Below, piece by piece: positions 9,229 through 64,000 of a stretch of 64,000 bases of DNA (positions within the stretch are counted from its first letter, which is position 1; each line of letters opens with the position of its first letter). Origin of the DNA: Pyrinomonadales bacterium (GTDB lineage Bacteria > Acidobacteriota > Blastocatellia > Pyrinomonadales > Pyrinomonadaceae); assembly GCA_038200355.1 (NCBI GenBank), contig JBBPXZ010000006.1, positions 9,954 through 73,953 of the forward strand, written 5' to 3'. The translations under genes were made by a program, and so were the position numbers. Under the pieces are notes generated by a model. That model did not search any database, was not told the DNA's origin, and saw only the letters and a program-made list of their open reading frames with translations.

Positions 9229-10236
9229 ATGGCGCAGACGGAAATTAATAAAAAAGTAGTTATTTTGGGTTCGGGTCCGGCAGGTTTAACGGCGGCGATT
9301 TACGCGTCCCGTGCGCAGCTCGCTCCCATAGTTATCGACGGACCGCAGCCGGGCGGACAGTTGACGATTACGACCGACGTTGAAAATTATCCCGGCTTTG
9401 CCGAAGGAATTATGGGACCGGAGTTGATGAATCAATTCCGGGCGCAGGCGACCAGATTCGGCACGGAAATCTTGAACATCTGGATTGATAAAGTCGATTT
9501 ATCGAGCAGACCGTTCACGCTTTACGGCAAGGAAAGCGCCGACGCCGACGAGATTACAACCTTAATAAAAGCCGAAACTTTAATTATCTCGACCGGCGCG
9601 TCCGCCAAATGGCTCGGCGTTCCGGGCGAAGAACCCGCGCCCGTCGGTTTGGGCGGCAACGGCGTTTCGGCGTGCGCGACGTGCGACGGATTTTTCTTTC
9701 GCGGAAAGCCGGTCGTTATTGTCGGCGGCGGCGACACGGCGATGGAAGAAGCGATGTTTTTGACGCGTTTCGCTTCAAAAGTAACCTTAATGCATCGCCG
9801 CGATTCGTTTCGCGCTTCAAAGATTATGCAGGAGCGCGTTTTCGCCAGCGACAAAATCGACATTATGTGGAATACCGGAATCCGCGAAATTGTCGGCACG
9901 AAGGAAGCGGGCGTTACGGGCGTGAAAATCTTCGATACGCAGTCGAATGAAGAAAGCGATTTCCCGACCGAAGGAGTTTTTATCGCCATCGGACACAAAC
10001 CGAACACCGACCTTTTCAAAAAGGTTCTCGATATGGACGAAACCGGCTACCTGATAACTGAAGGACGCACGATGAAAACCAACATTCCCGGTGTTTTCGC
10101 GTGCGGCGACGCGCAGGATTCGTATTATCGACAAGCGATTACGGCAGCGGGTTCGGGTTGTATGGCGGCAATCGACGCCGAGAGATTTCTGGTCGAACAC
10201 GGCGAAGCCGAAAAAGTTACGCAGACAAACTGGTAG
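9229..10236 (+). CDS. trxB: thioredoxin-disulfide reductase
   Basis: It has the GSGPAG FAD motif, the redox-active CATC (SACATCDG) and the GGGDTAMEEA NADPH motif. Confidence 0.95.
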   Translation: MAQTEINKKVVILGSGPAGLTAAIYASRAQLAPIVIDGPQPGGQLTITTDVENYPGFAEGIMGPELMNQFRAQATRFGTEILNIWIDKVDLSSRPFTLYGKESADADEITTLIKAETLIISTGASAKWLGVPGEEPAPVGLGGNGVSACATCDGFFFRGKPVVIVGGGDTAMEEAMFLTRFASKVTLMHRRDSFRASKIMQERVFASDKIDIMWNTGIREIVGTKEAGVTGVKIFDTQSNEESDFPTEGVFIAIGHKPNTDLFKKVLDMDETGYLITEGRTMKTNIPGVFACGDAQDSYYRQAITAAGSGCMAAIDAERFLVEHGEAEKVTQTNW

Positions 10237-41862: not shown

Positions 41863-44460
41863 TTAAGCCGCCGTCGCCGTCGCTTCGGGCGTAAATTTCA
41901 GCTTGCCGTCGCCGCTCGCGGAAACGCGCAGAATGCTTCCGTTTGAAATCTCGCCGTTAAGGAGTTTGACCGCCAGCGGATTTTGAATCAGCGTTTGAAT
42001 TGCCCGCTTTAAAGGGCGCGCGCCGAACGTCGGGTCGTAGCCTTCTTCGACGAGCAGCTCTTTCGCCGAATCGTCTAAAACGATTTGAATTCCGCGTTCG
42101 CCGAGCGTTCCGCGCAGGCGTTCAAGCTGAACTTCAATAATGGCTGCAATCTGCTCACGCGCCAATTGTTTGAAGACGACAATATCATCTATTCGGTTCA
42201 AAAACTCCGGTTTGAAATAATCGCGCAGCACTTGCGTAACGGCTTCGCGCATCTGTTTATCGTCGCTGCCGATTGATTGAATTTCACGCGAACCCAGATT
42301 CGATGTCATAATCAAAACCGTGTTTTTGAAATCCACGACGCGCCCTTTAGAATCCGTAAGTCGCCCGTCGTCAAGTATTTGCAGCAGAATATTGAACACG
42401 TCCGAATGCGCTTTTTCGATTTCGTCAAACAGCACGACGGAATACGGACGCCGCCGCACGGCTTCCGTAAGCTGCCCGCCTTCTTCATAACCGACGTATC
42501 CCGGCGGCGCGCCAACCATTCTGGCAACTGCGTGTTTTTCCATATATTCCGACATATCGAGCCGGATGAGCGCCCGTTCGTCGTCGAACAGAAATTCGGC
42601 TAAAGCCTTTGCCGTCTCGGTTTTACCGACGCCCGTCGGACCTAAAAAGATAAACGAGCCGACCGGACGATTCGGGTCTTGAAGTCCGGCGCGGGCGCGG
42701 CGAACCGCATTGGCAACCGCTTCGAGCGCTTCGTCCTGACCGATAACCCGTGAGCGCAGTTTGTCTTCCATCGTAACGAGCTTCTGCATCTCGCCTTCGA
42801 GCATTTTGGAAACCGGAACGCCCGTCCATTTGGCGACGACTTCCGCCACGTCTTCCTCATCAACTTCTTCTTTGAGGAAAACGCCGTCGGTTTGCAGTTC
42901 CGACAAATGATGCTGCTCGCCTTCGATTTGTTTTTCGAGCGTCGGAATCGTGCCGTATTGCAGTTCGGCGGCTTTATTTAAATCACCGGCGTTTCGCGCC
43001 TGCTCCAATTCCAGCCTGGCTTGTTCGAGCTTTTCCTTGCCGCCGCGCATCTTCTCGATTTCGTCTTTTTCCGACTGCCATTGCGCCTTCATTCCGCCGG
43101 ATTGCTCCTGCAAATCGGCAATTCGTTTTTCGATGTCTTCGAGCCGCGATTTAGATTTTTCGTCCGTTTCGCGCTGTAAAGCCTGGCGCTCGATTTCAAG
43201 CTGCAAAATTTCGCGCTCCAATTCGTCAATCTCCTGCGGCAGAGAATCGATTTCGATTCGGATTTTCGACGCCGCTTCGTCAATCAAATCAATCGCCTTG
43301 TCGGGCAGAAACCTATCGGTAATATAACGATTTGAAAGCGTCGCGGCGGCGACAATCGCCGAATCTTTGATGCGAACGCCGTGATGAACTTCGTAGCGTT
43401 CTTTCAAACCTCTGAGAATCGCAATCGTATCTTCGACATTCGGCTCGCCGACAAAAACGTTTTGAAAACGCCGTTCGAGCGCTTTGTCTTTTTCGATATA
43501 TTTCTGGTATTCGTTCAAAGTCGTCGCGCCGACGCAGCGCAGCATTCCGCGGGCAAGCGCCGGTTTGAGCATATTCGACGCGTCAATCGCGCCTTCGGAC
43601 GCGCCCGCGCCGACTAATGTGTGCAGTTCGTCGATAAACAAAATTATGTTTCCGTTGGCTGCTTCGATTTCCTTCAAAACGGCTTTTAAGCGGTCTTCAA
43701 ACTCGCCGCGATATTTCGCGCCCGCCAGCATCGAACCCAAATCCAAGCCGACAAGTCGTTTGCCTTTAAGAGTTTCCGGCACGTCGCCCGAAATGATTCT
43801 TTGCGCCAAACCTTCGACAATCGCCGTTTTACCGACGCCCGGCTCGCCGATTAAAACCGGATTATTTTTCGTTCTGCGGGATAAAACCTGAATCGTTCTT
43901 CTGATTTCGTCGTCGCGCCCGATTACCGGGTCGAGCTTTCCTTTTCTGGCTCGTTCAGTCAAATCCAGCGCGTATTTTTCGAGCGCCTGAAAGTTTTCTT
44001 CGGCGTTCTGGTCGGTGATTCGGCTGCCGCCGCGCATATCGGTTACAACTTTTTCAACGTCTTCTTTTGTAACGCCGTTCGAGCGCAAAATGCGTCCGGC
44101 ATCGCCTTCTTTCTCGTCGGCAATCGCCATCAAAATATGCTCGGTCGAAGTATATTCATCGCGCATTCGCTCGGCTTCTTTTTGGACAGCCTGAAAAATC
44201 GTGTTTGTCCGTGAGCTGAAATACTGCTGACCGCCGGAAACTTTCGGAAATTTAGCGATTGCCGCTTCGATTTCACTCTCTACGGTCGGAACGTTCGCGC
44301 CAATTTTTCCGAGAATCGGACGAACGACGCTTTCCTTTTGTTCGAGCATCGCGGCGAGCAGGTGTTCCGGCTCGACCTGTTGGTTCTGATTTTTTTCGGC
44401 AACGCCGATTGCCGCCTGAATCGCTTCCTGCCCGCGAATGGTAAATCTGTCGAATCTCAT
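41863..44460 (-). CDS. clpB: ATP-dependent disaggregase ClpB
   Basis: 865 aa with a Clp_N domain, D1 Walker [10 protein letters not shown], a long M-domain coiled coil and D2 Walker [10 protein letters not shown]. Confidence 0.97.
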
Positions 44461-55725: not shown

Positions 55726-56658
55726 TTACGGCGAGCGCGGCGGCAGCGGCTCGCCCGATTTTTCGGAACTCGCGTCCTTATAAGCGCACACGCGGTTTCT
55801 GCCTTCGCGTTTGGCGCGGTAAAGCGCCGAATCGGACATCTCGACCAGCTCAATCGGGTCGCTCGAATCGTCGGGGAAAACCGCGACGCCGATTGAGATA
55901 GTTACGCGGTGCGTCTGCTGCGGTTTGCTCTGTCGAACGATTGTAAATTCTTTCTTTTCGATTTCCGAGCGGATTCTCTCCGCCGCCACCAAGCCCTGCG
56001 CTAACTCGGCGTCGAGCAGAAACGCGGCAAATTCTTCGCCGCCGAATCGCGCCGCGACATCGCCGGTGCGCAGGATGTGCGTGATGCACAAACCGATTTC
56101 TTCTAAAGTTTTGCTGCCCGTCAAATGTCCGTAAGTGTCGTTGACGAGCTTGAAATAATCGACATCCATCATCAGGACGCAGAACGGGCGATTTTCCTGC
56201 GCGGCGCGGGCGGATTCGCGGCGCAGCTCCGAGAAAAAAGAACGGCTCGAAAGCAGTCCGGTCAAATCGTCGTGCGAAATCAGGCGGCGAATCTGGCGCT
56301 GGTATTCGCGGTCTATCTCGTCGAGCAGTTCAAACCGCAGAATATGTTCGCCGACGGTTATCTTATCGCCGTTCTGCAAAACTTCGCGCGTGATTTTCTG
56401 TCCGTTGAGAAGCGTTCCGTTTCTTGAAAACAAATCGCTTATAATATAATCCGTTTCATTTTTTTCGGCGTCGAAAACGGTAGTTATGCTGGCGTGCTGA
56501 CGCGAAACTTTCGTGTCGTTGATGCGAACGTCGGCTTCGAGCGCTCGTCCCAGAATAACTTCGGCGCGTTCGAGCGGAATCGGCACAGCCATTAAATCTC
56601 CGGTGAGAAAAACAACGGCGGGACGCAAATCACGCTTTGGTCGCTTCGATTCATTCAT
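55726..56658 (-). CDS. FHA-domain diguanylate cyclase (FHA-GGDEF)
   Basis: It has an FHA domain (ILGRALEADVRINDTKVSRQHASI..SRNGTLLNG) and a GGDEF domain with an intact GGEEF site (ARFGGEEFAAF). I placed the start at ATG 56658. Confidence 0.88.
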   Translation of the reverse strand: MNESKRPKRDLRPAVVFLTGDLMAVPIPLERAEVILGRALEADVRINDTKVSRQHASITTVFDAEKNETDYIISDLFSRNGTLLNGQKITREVLQNGDKITVGEHILRFELLDEIDREYQRQIRRLISHDDLTGLLSSRSFFSELRRESARAAQENRPFCVLMMDVDYFKLVNDTYGHLTGSKTLEEIGLCITHILRTGDVAARFGGEEFAAFLLDAELAQGLVAAERIRSEIEKKEFTIVRQSKPQQTHRVTISIGVAVFPDDSSDPIELVEMSDSALYRAKREGRNRVCAYKDASSEKSGEPLPPRSP

Positions 56659-56840
56659 AAAAATAAAAATTTTCCGGGCTTCGGGAAATGCCGTAATTGA
56701 CAGGATAAAGCATTTTAACCGAAATTGCATCGAGGTTTTAACCGTCGCGGCGCATCATAATCCAAAAAGCCGACGGCGGACGATTCCCGCAAAAGACGTT
56801 TCGCTTTCTCCGGCTCGACAAATTATATTTATCAGGGTAA

Positions 56841-57971: not shown

Positions 57972-58520
57972 ATGAGTTTGAAAAACAAAAGACTTTTACA
58001 GCGAATGCGCGTGCCGCTCGGATTTCTTTTCGGCATCGTGTTTTTGATTTTCGCCCGTCCCGAATTCGTAACTTTAACGGTCGGCGGCGCAATCGGCGCA
58101 GTCGGCATTTTAATCAGGGCTTGGGCTTCCGGGCATATTCGCAAAAATCAAAATCTGGCGGTCTCCGGTCCTTACGCTTACACGCGCAATCCGCTCTACT
58201 TGGGCAGCTTCATTTTGGGTCTGGGTTTTACGATTGCTTCCGGCGTCTGGTGGCTCGGCTTGATTTTCGCCGTTTTATTTCTGGGCATATATCTGCCGGT
58301 GATGCGCGTCGAAGCCGGAGATTTAATTGACATTTTCGGCGAAGATTATAAAGAATACGCACGGCGCGTTCCGCTCTTTTTTCCGCGCCTGACGCGTTAT
58401 AAAACGTCCGACGTTAAATTCGATATGGATTTATATTTGCGTTACCGTGAATATCGCGCCGCGCTCGGTTTGGTTTTCGCGCTCTCGATTCTGGCGCTCA
58501 AGGCGTTTTTCAAAATATAA
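57972..58520 (+). CDS. isoprenylcysteine carboxyl / phospholipid methyltransferase family membrane protein
   Basis: 182 aa with 4-5 TM helices, plus the GPYAYTRNPLYLG and E..L...FG..Y..Y motifs. Confidence 0.8.
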   Translation: MSLKNKRLLQRMRVPLGFLFGIVFLIFARPEFVTLTVGGAIGAVGILIRAWASGHIRKNQNLAVSGPYAYTRNPLYLGSFILGLGFTIASGVWWLGLIFAVLFLGIYLPVMRVEAGDLIDIFGEDYKEYARRVPLFFPRLTRYKTSDVKFDMDLYLRYREYRAALGLVFALSILALKAFFKI

Positions 58521-58524
58521 AATT

Positions 58525-59313
58525 ATGAAGACGAAAAAATCTTTCCTTGCGGTTTTACTGCTTTGCGGCTTGTTCTGCTTTTCGGCGGCGGCGCAGATTC
58601 AGCCGAAAATCGAATCTTACAAAACGGGCGAAAGTCTCGTCTATGAAGCAAAATTCAACCGCGCCGTGCTGCGCGGAATCGAAATCGCCGCTGTAAGTTT
58701 CGCGGTCGAAAAATCGCCGGATAACCGGAACTTTCTCGTCAAAACCAAAGCCGAATCAAAAGGCACGTTAAGCGGACTCGTTCTGCCGGATTTTCTGCAA
58801 AGCTACGAATCGACCGTTGACGGCAAAAATTTTTCGATTCTCAGAACCGTCAAATACGACCGGCAAGGCGAGCGCGTGCGCCGGAGTCGCGCAGATTTCG
58901 ATTATAAAGCCGGAAAAGTCGTTTATACGGAAACAGACCCGAACAACGCCGCCCGCCCGCCGCTTCTGGCTGCCTCCGGGATTGAACCCGGAATGCAGGA
59001 TTTAGTCTCAGCCATATACGCGCTCAGGCGTCTGCCGCTTGCCGTCGGAAAAAGCTTCGAGATAAAAGTCAGCGATTCCGGTTTGGTTTATACGATTCCC
59101 GTGCGTGTAACCGCGCGACAGCGGCAAAGAAGCGCCTTCGGAAAAGTTTGGTGTTTTCAGGTCGAGCCGGAAATTTTCGGGAAAAATCGTCTGATTGAAA
59201 AAGACGGAACGATGATTATCTGGATAACCGACGACGCCCGCCGCCTGCCGGTTCGCTCGCAAATCAACAGCAATATCGGGCGAATCGAGGTTAAGCTCAA
59301 ACGTAATAAGTGA
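58525..59313 (+). CDS. DUF3108 domain protein (exported)
   Basis: It has a signal peptide (MKTKKSFLAVLLLCGLFCFSAAAQ) and a DUF3108-like beta-barrel pattern. I placed the start at ATG 58525, 2 nt after the previous stop. Confidence 0.78.
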   Translation: MKTKKSFLAVLLLCGLFCFSAAAQIQPKIESYKTGESLVYEAKFNRAVLRGIEIAAVSFAVEKSPDNRNFLVKTKAESKGTLSGLVLPDFLQSYESTVDGKNFSILRTVKYDRQGERVRRSRADFDYKAGKVVYTETDPNNAARPPLLAASGIEPGMQDLVSAIYALRRLPLAVGKSFEIKVSDSGLVYTIPVRVTARQRQRSAFGKVWCFQVEPEIFGKNRLIEKDGTMIIWITDDARRLPVRSQINSNIGRIEVKLKRNK

Positions 59314-59388
59314 TAGATGATAACTGATAACTGATAAGTAAAGAATTTGCTTTTACTTATCACCTATCACCTATCACCTATCACCTAC
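59308..59388. repeat. 7-nt-periodic word hairpin (GATAACT / ACCTATC words)
   Basis: The left arm is GTGATAGATGATAACTGATAACTGATAAGTAAAG. The right arm is CTTTTACTTATCACCTATCACCTATCACCTATCACCTAC. The DUF3108 stop codon lies inside the left arm. Confidence 0.8.
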
Positions 59389-59494
59389 TCTCCCCGTTCA
59401 GTTTGACCGATTGATTCATTCAATCTGACGAAACCCGTACTTCCTCAATCTCTCAAAATTTCCATAAGTTCAATTGTTTCATAGTTTAGCTGTC

Positions 59495-59511: not shown

Positions 59512-59580
59512 ATACGGTTGCGGCAGAGCAGCGCGAATATCTGCCAATCTTATAAAACAATTTCTCTTTTGGAGAGCAGA

Positions 59581-62142
59581 ATGAATTTCAACAAAAAAAT
59601 TAACCGTCTGGTAAAAACAACCTCTTTTGTATTGCTTTTTTCGCTTGTTTTTACAAACGTGTTTGTTTATCGCGTCTTTGCCGAAACGAAAACAGCGTCT
59701 TTGGTAAAACTTACCACATTAAACAAATTTGCGACGGATTTGACCGAACTGGCGCGCGGCGGCGGCATCAGGCAGACCGCGAATTTCGACCGCGAAGTCG
59801 GCAGCCTCGTTAAACATCTTTCCGGCGGCGGCATCGCGCAGCCGGTTGTTTTAGATGAAACGGGCGAAAATCAGCAGCTGGTTGTCGAACAGCTCGCGCT
59901 TCGCCTCGCGTCGGGCGACGTTCCGGCTTCGTTAAAAGGAAAGCGCCTGCTCGAACTCGAACTCGATTCGGTCTATTCGCAGGACGCCGAACAATCGGCG
60001 CGAACGATTGAAAAAATCTTCGACGAGCTTGCCGCCTCGCGCGGCGACGTGATTTTATTTGTCGATGAGCTGACGAACTTCGTCGGCGGCGCGCGCGTTA
60101 ATAATCCTTTGACCAATCTGCTTCTTCAGGGGAAACTGCAAATCATCGGCGGCAGCTCGCAAGCCGCTTATAAAGAAAAAATCGAAGACAACGACAATAT
60201 TTCCGCTTTGTTCCGCACGATTCTAATCGGCGACGGCGCGAATAACCCGGTTGAAAACAATCGCCGCGCCGCTTTAAATAAAGGTTTTCAGGGCGATAAC
60301 GTTTCCGCCGATTTGCGCGAAATGATGGCGCGGAACGCGGCGGGCGACAAACGCACCGACGTTATCGTTCAGGCGAAAGATGCAAGCAATCCGGCGTTTC
60401 GTTCGCTGCTGGCGGAAAACGAAGCTCGGTTGAGCGAACGAATCGGCGCGAGCGACACGATGGTTGTCAACCTTTCGTTAAAAGCCGTCGAAGTTCTAGC
60501 CAAGAGCGGCGCGGTTAATTTTATGTCGCCCGACCGCGAAACGAAAGGTTTCGGGCATCTCGAAAAAACGACCGGCACGGAAATTATGCGCCAGCAGCCG
60601 GCGACACTGACGCGTCCGGCTTATAATCTGGACGGTTCGGGCGTCGGCATCGCCGTTATGGATTCGGGAATGCTGGTCAATCATAAAACCTTTAACAACA
60701 GCGCCGGCAGAAGCCGCGTCGTTTTCAGCAAAAGTTTTGTCGATACCGATTCAGACCCGGACGACGATTACGGACACGGAACGCACGTCGCCGGTATCGC
60801 CGCCGGAAGCCTCAATAAAAACAGCAACGCTTATCGCGGAATCGCGCCGAACGCCAACATCGTCAACTTAAAGGTTTTAGACAAAGAAGGGCGCGGCAAA
60901 GCGTCGTGGCTGTTGAACGGCTTGGAATGGATTAAGCAAAATCATAAAACCCACAACATCCGCGTCGTCAATTTAAGTCTCGGCGGACCGTCAGTCGATA
61001 CATACACCAACGACCCGGTTTGCCGCAAAGTGCAGGAATTGACCGCGCTCGGAATTCTCGTGGTCGCCGCCGCCGGAAACGAAGGCAAAGACGCCGGCGG
61101 TCAGAAACTTTACGGAAAAATTCACTCGCCCGGCAACGACCCGTCGGTTTTAACCGTCGGCGCGACCAACTCGAAAGACACCGATTCGCGCAGCGACGAT
61201 TTGATGGCGACCTTCAGCTCGCGCGGTCCGACGCGCTCGTTTTACACCGACGATAAAGGCAGAAAAATTTACGACCACGCCATCAAACCGGATTTAGTCG
61301 CGCCGGGCAACAAAATCGTTTCGGCGAAAGCGAAGGGAAGCGCTTATATGGTTACGCATTACCCGAATCTGTCGGACGCGTCGCTCGACTCGACCAGCGA
61401 CGACAGCCTGCTTTATATGAGCGGAACTTCGATGTCCACGCCGGTTGTGGCGGGCGCGGCGGCTCTGCTTTTCCAGCAAAATCCGAATCTGACGCCCGCG
61501 ATGGTCAAAATGATTTTTGAATACACGGCGCAGCCCCTGAGCGGCTACAATATGTTCGAGCAGGGCGCGGGACAGCTTAATATGGAAGGCGCGATTCGGC
61601 TGGCGAAATCCTATAATCCGCTTGTCGATTTCAGAACGCTCGGAGTTTCGGGAATGTCGCTTCTCGCCGTCGGAAACAGCTTTCCGGCTGCTCAAACCAC
61701 TATGAACGGCAATACATTCAGCTGGGCGCAGGGAATTTTGACAAATCACGCGTATCTGAGAGGTCAAACGATTGCCGACACTTTCCACAACGTTTATAAA
61801 AATAATTCGTGGTTTGAAGAAGGCGTTACGACCAGCAACGCGCACAAATTCACGCTGAACGATAATTTTGCAAATCCGGCAAATATCGGTCTGACAGCCA
61901 GAGTCGCCGTCAGCAACGGCTCGACAATCGGCGAAGGCTCGGTTTTCTGCGCCTTCGGAGTTTTAATAAGCGACGGAGTTTTAGTGAGCGACGGCGTTTT
62001 AATAAGTGACGGTGTTCTGGTGAGCGACGGAGTTTTAGTAAGCGACGGCGTTCTGATTAGCGACGGCGTTCTGATTAGCGACGGCGTTCTGATTAGCGAC
62101 AGCGCGCTGGCTGCCGACAACGCGATTTACGGTGATGAGTAA
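59581..62142 (+). CDS. secreted S8 subtilase with N-terminal degenerate Clp D1 AAA+-like module, I9 propeptide and C-terminal GVLxSD repeat tail
   Basis: A GGAGAG RBS precedes the ATG, followed by a signal peptide ..YRVFA|E. Residues 47-219 are colinear with ClpB D1 but the P-loop is lost. The S8 triad contexts are AVMDSG, HGTHVAG and GTSMSTP. Confidence 0.85.
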   Translation: MNFNKKINRLVKTTSFVLLFSLVFTNVFVYRVFAETKTASLVKLTTLNKFATDLTELARGGGIRQTANFDREVGSLVKHLSGGGIAQPVVLDETGENQQLVVEQLALRLASGDVPASLKGKRLLELELDSVYSQDAEQSARTIEKIFDELAASRGDVILFVDELTNFVGGARVNNPLTNLLLQGKLQIIGGSSQAAYKEKIEDNDNISALFRTILIGDGANNPVENNRRAALNKGFQGDNVSADLREMMARNAAGDKRTDVIVQAKDASNPAFRSLLAENEARLSERIGASDTMVVNLSLKAVEVLAKSGAVNFMSPDRETKGFGHLEKTTGTEIMRQQPATLTRPAYNLDGSGVGIAVMDSGMLVNHKTFNNSAGRSRVVFSKSFVDTDSDPDDDYGHGTHVAGIAAGSLNKNSNAYRGIAPNANIVNLKVLDKEGRGKASWLLNGLEWIKQNHKTHNIRVVNLSLGGPSVDTYTNDPVCRKVQELTALGILVVAAAGNEGKDAGGQKLYGKIHSPGNDPSVLTVGATNSKDTDSRSDDLMATFSSRGPTRSFYTDDKGRKIYDHAIKPDLVAPGNKIVSAKAKGSAYMVTHYPNLSDASLDSTSDDSLLYMSGTSMSTPVVAGAAALLFQQNPNLTPAMVKMIFEYTAQPLSGYNMFEQGAGQLNMEGAIRLAKSYNPLVDFRTLGVSGMSLLAVGNSFPAAQTTMNGNTFSWAQGILTNHAYLRGQTIADTFHNVYKNNSWFEEGVTTSNAHKFTLNDNFANPANIGLTARVAVSNGSTIGEGSVFCAFGVLISDGVLVSDGVLISDGVLVSDGVLVSDGVLISDGVLISDGVLISDSALAADNAIYGDE
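61957..62118 (+). repeat. in-frame 18-nt tandem repeat x8 (+1 degenerate) encoding GVL(I/V)SD
   Basis: The units are GGAGTTTTAATAAGCGAC and variants. The last three units (62047-62100) are nucleotide-identical GGCGTTCTGATTAGCGAC. Confidence 0.95.
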
Positions 62143-62178: not shown

Positions 62179-63093
62179 GTGAATTTACAACCGGTCGCAA
62201 ACATCATCGGGAATCAGCTTTATAAAAATCCGCAGCAAACGGCGGCTGGTACGAATGCAGTTCCGAATCGCCTCGAACGACTGAACGAAGCGAATAAACG
62301 GGAAGTTTTGGATTTTCTCTCCGTTCGTCCGGTTCACACGGTCGTTATGGCGAGTTTTATTCAGGACAACGGAATCGAAAGTGAAAATAATCGCGGCAGA
62401 TTTTACGGTTATCGATGTGCGAACGGAACGCTCGAAGGCGTCGCGCTCATCGGACACACGACGCTGCTCGAATCGCGCTCCGACAACGCTCTGACGGCTT
62501 TCGCCTTTGCCGCCCGCCAATCGGAAACGGCAATTCATATAATGATGTCGGACGGAAAAACCGTCGAAACCTTCTGGCAAAGTTTCGCCGGAAACTCGCG
62601 CCGGGCGCGTTTAACCTGCACCGAACTGCTGTTTGAACTGAGTTTTCCGTTTTTGACACAAGAATCGAAATGGATTCCGCGCCTCGCAAAACCGGGAGAA
62701 CTCGAACAAATCGCCGCGGCGCACGCCGAGGTCGCCTTTGTCGAAAGCGGCATCGACCCGATGCGAACAGACCGAAGCGGTTTTCTCAAACGCACGCTGC
62801 GAAGAATCGAACAGAAACGCACTTTTGCAGTATTTCAGGACGACAAACTAATCTTTAAAGCCGACATTGCCGCCGAAACCGCCGATACGATTTACCTTGA
62901 GGGAATTTACGTCGCGCCGGAATTTCGCGGGCAGGGAATCGCTTCGAGCTGCCTGTCGAAACTCTGCGCCGAACTGCTCGTTCGCGTGGAACACATCTGC
63001 CTGCTGAGCAACGTCGAAGCCGCAGGCGCGCACCGCAGCTTTTTAAAAGCCGGATTTAAAAATACCGATTCCGCAACGACAATTTTTGTTTAA
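62179..63093 (+). CDS. GNAT family N-acetyltransferase with N-terminal DUF4081-like domain
   Basis: A GTG start has GGGAGG 9 nt upstream. The acetyl-CoA motif is IYVAPEFRGQGIASSCLSKL. It lies 36 nt after the S8 stop. Confidence 0.78.
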   Translation: MNLQPVANIIGNQLYKNPQQTAAGTNAVPNRLERLNEANKREVLDFLSVRPVHTVVMASFIQDNGIESENNRGRFYGYRCANGTLEGVALIGHTTLLESRSDNALTAFAFAARQSETAIHIMMSDGKTVETFWQSFAGNSRRARLTCTELLFELSFPFLTQESKWIPRLAKPGELEQIAAAHAEVAFVESGIDPMRTDRSGFLKRTLRRIEQKRTFAVFQDDKLIFKADIAAETADTIYLEGIYVAPEFRGQGIASSCLSKLCAELLVRVEHICLLSNVEAAGAHRSFLKAGFKNTDSATTIFV

Positions 63094-63280: not shown

Positions 63281-64000
63281 ATGAGTAAGGCACTGCAAAA
63301 CAAAAGCTATATGCCGGCGATTCTGGCAGCCGGTTTTGTGTGTCTGCTCGGCGCGATTGTCAATTTTCCAACCGAAAGGCTCGATTTCAAATTTTTAATT
63401 CTTTTCTGTTTTACGCTCGGTCTCGGCTCGCGGATAACGCTTCAGATTCCGCGCTTCAAATCGCACATCGCTGTTTCCGACACGTTTATTTTTCTCGCGC
63501 TGCTGATGTACGGCGGCGAATTCGCAATCGTTCTCTCGGCGGTCGAAGCGTTTTTCTCGTCGTGGCGCTTCTGCAACAAAAAAATAACCGTATTTTTCAA
63601 CTCGGCGGTAATGGCTTTATCGACAACCGTTGTCGTTCTCACGCTTAAATTATTCGGCTTTTACGGCGAAAGCCGTCTGCGCGGACACGACGGCGATTTC
63701 GGCAATTTCGTTATTGTGCTGTCGATAATGGCATTAACGCAGTTTGCCGCAAATACTACGTTCTGCTCGATTTACGCGGCGCTCAAGAGTGAAAAGCCGT
63801 TTTGGGAAACGTGGAAAAGCCAGTATGTCTGGACGTATATTACATACATCGTCGGCGCGGGAAGCGCCGGATTTTTATTGCAGCTCAACGAGCGGCTCGG
63901 TTTCGGCGTCGTCCTCGCGTCATTTCCTATCATCTATTTCGTTTATCTGACTTACCGGATGTATATGAAAAACGTCGAAATCTCGCTCGCTCAGGTCGAG
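63281..64000 (+). CDS. polytopic membrane protein, N-terminal part (probable membrane sensor module of a signalling protein); 3' end lies outside the window
   Basis: This frame is not in the supplied ORF track. It is open from ATG 63281 to the window end (240 codons, translated by hand: MSKALQNKSYMPAILAAGFVCLLGAIV...) and has 6-7 hydrophobic helices. Confidence 0.6.
   Translation, partial: MSKALQNKSYMPAILAAGFVCLLGAIVNFPTERLDFKFLILFCFTLGLGSRITLQIPRFKSHIAVSDTFIFLALLMYGGEFAIVLSAVEAFFSSWRFCNKKITVFFNSAVMALSTTVVVLTLKLFGFYGESRLRGHDGDFGNFVIVLSIMALTQFAANTTFCSIYAALKSEKPFWETWKSQYVWTYITYIVGAGSAGFLLQLNERLGFGVVLASFPIIYFVYLTYRMYMKNVEISLAQVE

Follow-up and report, generated by a model that had tools for sequence, protein, structure and literature searches.

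A putatively exported subtilase family of Pyrinomonadaceae with a degenerate ClpB-type AAA+ module in front of its propeptide

The stretch of DNA analysed here (hereafter the window; 64,000 nucleotides (nt), positions 9,954 to 73,953 of contig JBBPXZ010000006.1 in the assembly GCA_038200355.1 of a Pyrinomonadales bacterium) contains an open reading frame (ORF) at 59581-62142 on the forward strand, which encodes a protein of 853 amino acid residues (aa) and lies exactly where the preliminary description of this DNA had placed it. The protein is a peptidase of the S8 family (subtilase) with a signal-peptide-like N-terminus, and between this N-terminus and the pro-region of the protease lies a module homologous to the large subdomain of D1, the first nucleotide-binding domain (NBD1) of ClpB, in which the residues for ATP binding and hydrolysis have been replaced. 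The features of the gene, together with the genuine clpB gene of the same window, are as follows.

59571..59576, + strand: Shine-Dalgarno-like GGAGAG, 4 nt 5' of the ATG at 59581, read from the sequence
59581..59682, + strand: signal-peptide-like N-terminus, aa 1-34, MNFNKKINRLVKTTSFVLLFSLVFTNVFVYRVFA with E as the next residue, from hydrophobicity, charge and -3/-1 heuristics
59713..60234, + strand: pseudo-ATPase module like the large subdomain of ClpB NBD1 (D1), aa 45-218, from BLASTP, NCBIfam, PDB and AlphaFold (AF2)/Foldseek
59854..59877, + strand: degenerate P-loop DETGENQQ, aa 92-99, in place of GEPGVGKT, from the alignment of 84 copies
60052..60075, + strand: Walker B remnant ILFVDELT, aa 158-165, from the same alignment
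60235..60291, + strand: linker, aa 219-237, with a predicted local distance difference test score (pLDDT) <50 and 20% mean pairwise identity
60292..60540, + strand: ancestral pro-region, aa 238-320, a conserved helix (GDNVSADLREMM) plus an I9-type propeptide, from the AF2 model and the short paralogues
60634..61572, + strand: peptidase S8 catalytic domain, aa 352-664, PF00082 at E=2e-53
60661-60663 (D361), 60775-60777 (H399), 61078-61080 (N500) and 61429-61431 (S617), + strand: S8 catalytic residues
61573..61905, + strand: beta-rich domain, aa 665-775, AF2 strands with pLDDT ~80-90, also present in the short paralogues
61906..62142, + strand: acidic hexapeptide-repeat tail, GVL(I/V)SD ~9 times and then YGDE, aa 776-853 plus stop codon, from repeat analysis
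41863..44460, - strand: bona fide ClpB, 865 aa, both P-loops intact, the comparator and putative donor type of the module

Pfam recognised the module poorly, giving AAA at E=0.055 only and, in one homologue, a sub-threshold match to NBD_SMAX1 (19.3 bits, cutoff 27), and the module was therefore tested by NCBIfam, PDB and BLAST searches. In pairwise BLASTP, aa 47-218 align colinearly with residues 160-339 of the ClpB encoded in the window (61/183 identities, 33%, E=5e-23), which bears out the colinearity with D1 first noticed over residues ~47-219. The four matching blocks described then are all present, starting at aa 47, 87, 158 and 186 against ClpB 160, 200, 273 and 307, with 9/13, 23/44, 8/13 and 7/32 identities, respectively; the hand count of 23/48 for the long block has to be corrected to 23/44. 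The NCBIfam model of ClpB (TIGR03346) matches aa 43-218 with its positions 152-335 (E=7.9e-21), and the top PDB matches by sequence are stand-alone fragments of ClpB NBD1, namely 2p65 (1.2e-20) and 1jbk (8.6e-19). An AlphaFold model of the module, built on the family alignment A1, contains five parallel strands (pLDDT ~80-90, and ~90 in the full-length model). With this model as the query, Foldseek ranked ClpB NBD1 structures first (1jbk with a template modelling (TM) score of 0.86 and a root-mean-square deviation (rmsd) of 1.9 A over 175 columns), so the structural check proposed in the preliminary description agrees with a Clp D1 fold. Thus, sequence, profile and predicted fold agree, and the homology of the module to Clp D1 is confirmed far beyond chance. 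The module corresponds only to the large alpha/beta subdomain (ClpB ~152-339), as the profile and PDB matches end at ClpB ~335-340; no lid subdomain, M-domain, N-domain or D2 was found by profile, by PDB match or in the AF2 model, and the disordered linker and the I9 unit come next.

The catalytic residues were counted in 84 orthologous copies from 79 genomic loci, aligned to ClpB. As described before, DETGENQQ (nt 59854-59877) stands in the window protein for GEPGVGKT, with neither Lys nor Thr, and this holds well beyond the window gene: the Walker A Lys is found in 0/84 copies, with Gln at its place in 80/84, the first Gly of Walker A has become Asp in 83/84, and Thr is left in 3/84. Moreover, the Arg of the pre-Walker 'GR' and the pore-loop Tyr (KYRG) are each absent from all 84 copies, the window protein having a deletion of two residues at the latter place. 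Both Arg fingers are likewise lost (Arg in 0/84; 'ERRFQ' of ClpB is aligned to 'SALFR' of the window protein), as had been said of the RRF positions; the sensor-1 'ATT', which had been counted among the losses, is conservatively changed to 'GSS'. Walker B, reported as retained, is kept in the window protein (ILFVDELT) and only partly in the family, with Asp in 57 copies (Asn in 26) and Glu in 78. No G..G.GK[ST] P-loop pattern was found in any of the 216 degenerate modules pooled from all searches. Judged by these residues, the module cannot be an ATPase, and the verdict of a catalytically dead module applies to the whole set of 84 copies as well as to the window gene. The isoelectric point (pI) has also shifted, to ~4.7-5.0 from 9.0 in ClpB D1. 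In the clade of the window protein the former P-loop is itself conserved (D92 in 83/84, G95 in 70/84 and Q98 in 80/84), and D92, Q98, E163 and S193 are within the top 21 of the 174 module positions by conservation. A special conservation of the former nucleotide pocket was considered and rejected, as its positions taken as a set are only marginally above random module positions (P ~0.05).

The N-terminus was judged in the 84 homologues by simple rules on hydrophobicity, charge and the -3/-1 positions. All 84 have a hydrophobic 15-mer with a mean Kyte-Doolittle value >1.6 and at least one small-residue -3/-1 site just past the h-region, the aligned -3/-1 positions being (A/T/V)-x-A, and the n-region has a net positive charge in 83/84. 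Neither a twin-arginine motif nor a lipobox was found in the window protein, nor a conserved lipobox in the family. Hence the n-, h- and c-region features of the Sec-type signal peptide that had been proposed recur throughout, and the heuristics support a signal-peptide-like N-terminus and a putatively exported protein. By the positive-inside rule, the module is placed outside the cytoplasm whether the signal is cleaved or serves as an anchor. The spacer that follows is poorly conserved (15% mean pairwise identity). The h-region is unusually conserved in alignment A1 (consensus SFIFTNVFA), with a near-invariant N26 (at least 90%), a residue not typical of Sec signal peptides.

Behind the linker, the AF2 model of the pro-region (pLDDT ~82-88) contains the elements E258-265, H271-279, E283-287, E293-299, H300-309 and E312-317, in the order beta-alpha-beta-beta-alpha-beta. 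The I9-like propeptide of the preliminary description is upheld because of this topology, because the sequence match to pro-subtilisin E begins inside the propeptide of the latter, and because the zymogen structures (3afg, 3whi and Pro-Tk-subtilisin), which match best, align by Foldseek over 437-480 columns (437-464 for pro-subtilisin E and ProN-Tk-SP) versus ~325 for mature subtilisins; the Pfam model PF05922 (Inhibitor_I9) gave no match at E up to 1. A flexible segment (aa 320-324, pLDDT <50) lies at the I9/S8 junction. The S8 domain itself scores 182 bits against PF00082 (cutoff 21.8), and its triad is complete, as reported, with D361, H399, S617 and the oxyanion N500 invariant in 83-84 of the 84 homologues. 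The nearest solved structure by sequence is Tk-SP (3afg, E=2.9e-38), and the full-length AF2 model has a predicted TM score of 0.60. The beta-rich region that follows measures ~110 aa (665-775) and not ~170 aa as estimated earlier. The hexapeptide-repeat tail is present, with GVL(I/V)SD units; by eye, the repeat I/V-S-D-G-V-L resembles the hexapeptide pattern of left-handed beta-helix domains, and its profile scores stay below the cutoffs (LbH_EIF2B 19.6-22.6 bits, cutoff 54; Hexapep 12.7-17.4 bits, cutoff 27). At the DNA level the tail consists of 8.3 copies of an 18-nt unit matching at 83%, and is therefore not the product of recent slippage. With a pI of 4.05, a net charge of -12 and pLDDT <35 as a monomer, the tail may serve in oligomerisation or sorting or be a C-propeptide. 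The short paralogues introduced below have a conserved 'GDxTxxM'-like motif at their C-termini (alignment A2); in the window protein the last residues are YGDE.

This architecture is that of a large gene family in Pyrinomonadaceae, and the window gene is no singleton. A pattern scan of the GTDB species representatives gave 175 confirmed stretches, of which 79 loci were fetched, all from Pyrinomonadaceae, Pyrinomonadales or Blastocatellia metagenome-assembled genomes, complete chromosomes included. A misassembled or chimeric ORF was ruled out by the identical architecture in these 79 independent assemblies. The 79 complete ORFs encode 767-895 aa (median 858) and are conserved along their full length, the tail too, and four loci (L043, L047, L048 and L069) carry tandem same-strand copies of the gene. 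Among all 216 degenerate modules, every carrier long enough to be judged has the S8 domain. In the source records these proteins are labelled 'S8 family serine peptidase', 'subtilisin family serine protease' or 'AprX', and one truncated fragment is labelled 'ClpA'. Two odd members were seen: P0020 (358 aa, on a contig of 2,002 bp) joins a degenerate module and the start of I9 to a LytTR DNA-binding domain and is most likely an assembly chimera, and P0009 (414 aa) has an apparent frameshift after the I9 unit.

With the S8 domain and the C-terminal part as the query, many paralogues were found in Pyrinomonadaceae that have the same catalytic domain, beta domain and hexapeptide tail. Some are 620-690 aa long, and others have 730-755 aa, of which the one scanned (P0100) carries a C-terminal fn3 domain. 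At most ~20 residues separate the signal peptide of the short forms from 'DKVSxDLRE' and the I9-type unit, the part that corresponds to the window protein from aa 238 on. Since these paralogues pass directly from the signal peptide to the pro-helix, the module and linker (aa 35-237) are an insertion that lies exactly at the border of the signal peptide with a pro-region already present before.

Among 1.84 billion representative proteins, a profile made from the module had 136 matches at E<=1e-30. All degenerate modules follow closely on the signal peptide and start no more than ~60 residues from the N-terminus when three sequences are excluded, the chimera-like P0193 and P0203 and the fragment P0202. 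No intermediate and no further host of the degenerate module came out of this search, as the matches at odd positions or in 2-4 copies all have an intact GxxGxGKT and are genuine Clp-like ATPases or assembly chimeras. There is, furthermore, a second tier of S8 proteins with signal peptides whose modules are much nearer to ClpB, including P0212, which is labelled Pyrinomonadaceae in its source and has the P-loop GESGANAK. The module of P0191 is 51% identical to D1 of the ClpB encoded in the window and reads GESGLARN, FIDELH, GATT and ESFFQ at the key motifs. Identity to ClpB thus covers the range of 51% to 23% without a break. The least-decayed modules score 222 bits with ClpB, 189 with ClpV, 178 with ClpK and 172 with ClpA, so that in the 'ClpB/ClpA D1' origin first suggested the ClpB part stands and the ClpA part does not; by these scores ClpB is clearly the best candidate for the donor type. 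In the phylogeny of the module against Clp D1 domains that had been called for, the degenerate modules form one clade relative to 46 true Clp D1 domains in 50/50 neighbour-joining (NJ) bootstraps, which is consistent with a single capture. Distances in the module are correlated with those in S8 (Mantel r=0.67, 0/2000 permutations), and this correlation is as tight as that between I9 and S8.

Mean pairwise identity along the protein is 15% in the spacer, 48% in the module, 20% in the linker, 62% in the I9-type unit, 64% in S8, 44% in the beta domain and 65% in the tail, and the length of the module is steady at 176-183 aa. The identity of 48% against 15-20% in the flanks, the fixed length and the pLDDT of ~90 point to purifying selection on a folded domain, which argues for the module being maintained as such and against a decaying relic.

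With respect to the surroundings of the gene, the next gene downstream is the following.

62179..63093, + strand: GNAT-family acetyltransferase gene, from the Pfam GNAT match and synteny

It is syntenic on the same strand in 64 of the 79 loci, with a median gap of 34 nt (36 nt in the window), and it is 62-70% identical across loci, better conserved than the protease. Its product (304 aa) has a C-terminal GNAT domain by Pfam, its N-terminal ~200 aa being without a domain assignment; no NCBIfam match was obtained for it, and its sole PDB match, to a diamine acetyltransferase, is weak. No terminator-like site was seen in the gap between the two genes, and the GNAT gene is probably co-transcribed with that of the protease. 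A conserved third gene encodes a membrane PAS-GGDEF-EAL protein of ~836 aa in 67 loci (e.g. L008:9689-12199); the copy of the window, at 63281-64000 on the + strand, runs off its end. Upstream, a malate dehydrogenase gene precedes the protease in 51 loci and not in the window, whose upstream genes are conserved only in the closest relative. Synteny was considered as a clue to function and rejected, as the region seems to be a conserved part of the core chromosome (mdh ... sdhB).

Further upstream in the window, a gene for an FHA-GGDEF protein lies at 55726-56730 on the - strand. The listed GTG start of a DUF3108 ORF (58447-59313, + strand) overlaps a PEMT-like gene (57972-58520, + strand) by 74 nt; an internal ATG at ~58525 (MKTKKSFLAVLLL...) is more likely the start, as it would give a typical signal peptide. 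Just past the stop codon of the DUF3108 ORF, at 59316-59395, there is a long imperfect palindrome around a central hairpin (GATAAGTAAAGAATTTGCTTTTACTTATC), built of the heptamer repeats GATAACT (twice) and CTATCAC(C) (four times). An Rfam search of the 5' intergenic region gave only sub-threshold 'miRNA precursor' matches, such as a generic long hairpin would produce, and the palindrome perhaps acts as a terminator or represents a repeat element.

As to the role of the module, the preliminary description had named an intramolecular chaperone or prodomain and a substrate clamp. The position of the module favours a prodomain extension over a clamp because it lies upstream of the I9 unit, where the short paralogues have only the signal peptide. 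I9 propeptides of subtilases are cut off autocatalytically and afterwards act as transient inhibitors, and there is no ATP in the bacterial periplasm and exterior. The likeliest role of the module would be that of an ATP-independent extension of the pro-region that is removed on activation. Taken as a whole, we consider it fairly probable that the protein is an exported subtilase zymogen whose ClpB-derived pro-region extension leaves together with I9; the specific role of the module is much less certain than the architecture. We assume that the large alpha/beta fragment of ClpB NBD1 was captured once in an ancestor within the Pyrinomonadaceae and came to lie, in an AprX/Tk-SP-like S8 protease, behind the signal peptide and ahead of the existing pro-helix plus I9 unit, where it would have lost the residues for ATP binding and hydrolysis and the elements that form the hexamer, and would have persisted since then as a pseudo-ATPase fold that is stable, acidic and monomeric. 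The protein would then cross the inner membrane and shed its signal peptide by the Sec pathway, the folding of S8 would be templated by the I9 unit, self-cleavage would take place at the I9/S8 junction, by analogy with I9-bearing subtilases, and the module and I9 would be released together as one pro-fragment of ~285 aa. In this inhibitory fragment the module could tune solubility, stability or the timing of release, acting as an ATP-independent ballast or latch and not as an unfoldase.

Several points weigh against such a removable pro-region extension. The cleavage at the I9/S8 junction is assumed, the short paralogues presumably fold and mature without the module, and the Foldseek superpositions that include the propeptide have an rmsd of ~21 A, I9 not being in its canonical docked position in the model. 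The module also evolves ~1.7 times faster than S8. Furthermore, a single clade of module-bearing proteases had to be rejected on the NJ tree of S8, where the long forms are not monophyletic (0/100 bootstraps); therefore, either the module was lost several times after a single capture or this tree is unreliable. The faster evolution, together with the continuum of identity to ClpB and the existence of module-less paralogues, with long and short forms interleaved on the S8 tree in a way that suggests repeated loss, would also fit a functionless passenger, an accidental ClpB fusion that is tolerated as a spacer and slowly decays. We hold this to be improbable, because the module is intact in 84/84 orthologues and 216 sequences overall, has a constant length, conserved core hydrophobics and a confidently predicted fold, and is 2-3 times better conserved than the adjoining linkers; erosion or deletion would be the expected fate of a neutral stretch of 180 aa inserted into an exported protein. 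More improbable still is an uncleaved membrane anchor, by which the protease would be a periplasmic protein tethered to the inner membrane and the module its membrane-proximal stalk or spacer. It could account for the single long helix predicted by AF2 at residues 2-37 (N-terminal model) or 9-33 (full-length model), for the unusual conservation of the h-region with its Asn26, and for the presence of Ala at the aligned -1 position in only 49/84 homologues, but every homologue has the small-residue -3/-1 site directly after the h-region, the short paralogues have ordinary signal peptides, and the spacer past the cleavage site is as poorly conserved as expected of a mature N-terminus.

The purifying selection on the module could instead mean that it has a function in the mature enzyme, to which it would stay attached covalently or not, and that it binds substrate, ligand or surface through the remodelled nucleotide pocket, whose acidic D-E-x-G-E-N-Q-E loop and Walker B Asp/Glu might bind, for example, Ca2+ or basic peptides. 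The conservation of the replaced P-loop in the clade of the window protein, the high rank of E163 and S193 and the acidic shift of the pI are in favour of this. On the other side, the pocket positions as a set are no more than marginally conserved, the loop is highly variable in the more ClpB-like tier (GESGANAK, SETGLSAS, TDSQAVRD and others), the module lies upstream of an I9 propeptide that is normally cut away, and the linker to the rest of the protein is disordered and unconserved, so that we regard a retained binding domain as unlikely, albeit less so than the passenger or the anchor. Slightly more unlikely, in our estimate, is a more specific proposal that combines the pocket with the pro-region, namely that the former nucleotide pocket is a cation or peptide site and makes the module a ligand-gated (e.g. 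Ca2+) latch on I9, so that the protease would be activated only outside the cell. If true, bacteria would possess an AAA+ pseudoenzyme that is exported, works without ATP and has a regulatory function.

Neither Pfam nor NCBIfam has a model for the module in an S8 context, as judged from scans of the window protein and its homologues, and full-text literature searches found no description of an exported Clp-derived pseudo-ATPase joined to a subtilase. A survey of S8 domain architectures of 2008 lists AAA only together with Lon. This agrees with the earlier remark that the architecture was not recognised as a described family; in the databases searched, its members carry no more than the S8 or AprX labels. 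The parts are known (subtilase zymogen and AAA+ pseudoenzyme), and their combination as an exported pro-region domain appears to be undescribed. The family adds such an accessory domain to the repertoire of subtilase pro-regions and exposes an annotation gap, since Pfam and NCBIfam label the module-bearing proteins as S8 peptidases only. AAA+ domains are regarded as cytoplasmic, ATP-driven machines, and the family suggests that an AAA+ core can be excised, exported to an ATP-free compartment and stripped of its catalytic residues and yet be kept under selection over the long term. In addition, the series of modules from 51% to 23% identity to ClpB is a natural decay series that would lend itself to studies of the upkeep of a P-loop fold after nucleotide binding is lost. 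The practical significance is moderate, the sources being uncultured soil Acidobacteria.

Among known systems, the closest to the module is the large subdomain of ClpB/Hsp104 NBD1 (1jbk, 2p65 and 4hse), which has the same five-stranded alpha/beta fold (TM 0.82-0.86) and colinear homology, with 33% identity to the host ClpB in the window and up to 51% in the least-decayed members, and whose crystallised stand-alone fragments have boundaries equal to those of the module. Unlike ClpB NBD1, the module sits behind a signal peptide, is fused to a protease zymogen and is acidic instead of basic, and its protein lacks the N-domain, lid subdomain, M-domain and D2 of ClpB. For the protease part, the subtilase zymogens ProN-Tk-SP (3afg), pro-subtilisin E (3whi) and Pro-Tk-subtilisin (3wiv) likewise have an I9-type propeptide followed by S8 with a full triad, and Tk-SP also has a C-terminal beta domain; none of the three has an AAA+-derived domain of ~175 aa before the propeptide or an acidic hexapeptide tail. 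The short AprX-like paralogues of Pyrinomonadaceae (P0069, P0087 and P0093; 620-690 aa) share the signal peptide, the 'DKVSxDLRE' pro-helix, I9, S8, the beta domain and the tail, and their S8 domains are ~45-50% identical to that of the module-bearing form, but the module is wholly absent. The luminal domains of LAP1 and LULL1, the partners of torsins, are another case of an AAA+-type fold without nucleotide binding that serves as a non-cytosolic protein-interaction module. They are eukaryotic and not derived from Clp, and they give an Arg finger to an active AAA+ partner, whereas the module described here has no Arg fingers and no active partner that is known or likely. Finally, WprA of Bacillus subtilis is a subtilase precursor that gives rise, from its large N-terminal pro-part, to a separate wall protein, CWBP23. 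It resembles the present family in the unusual size of its N-terminal pro-region, which may persist after processing as a separate stable protein; its host is Gram-positive, and no tie of its pro-part to AAA+ domains in sequence or fold has been shown, in contrast to the ClpB-like module of the Pyrinomonadaceae proteases.

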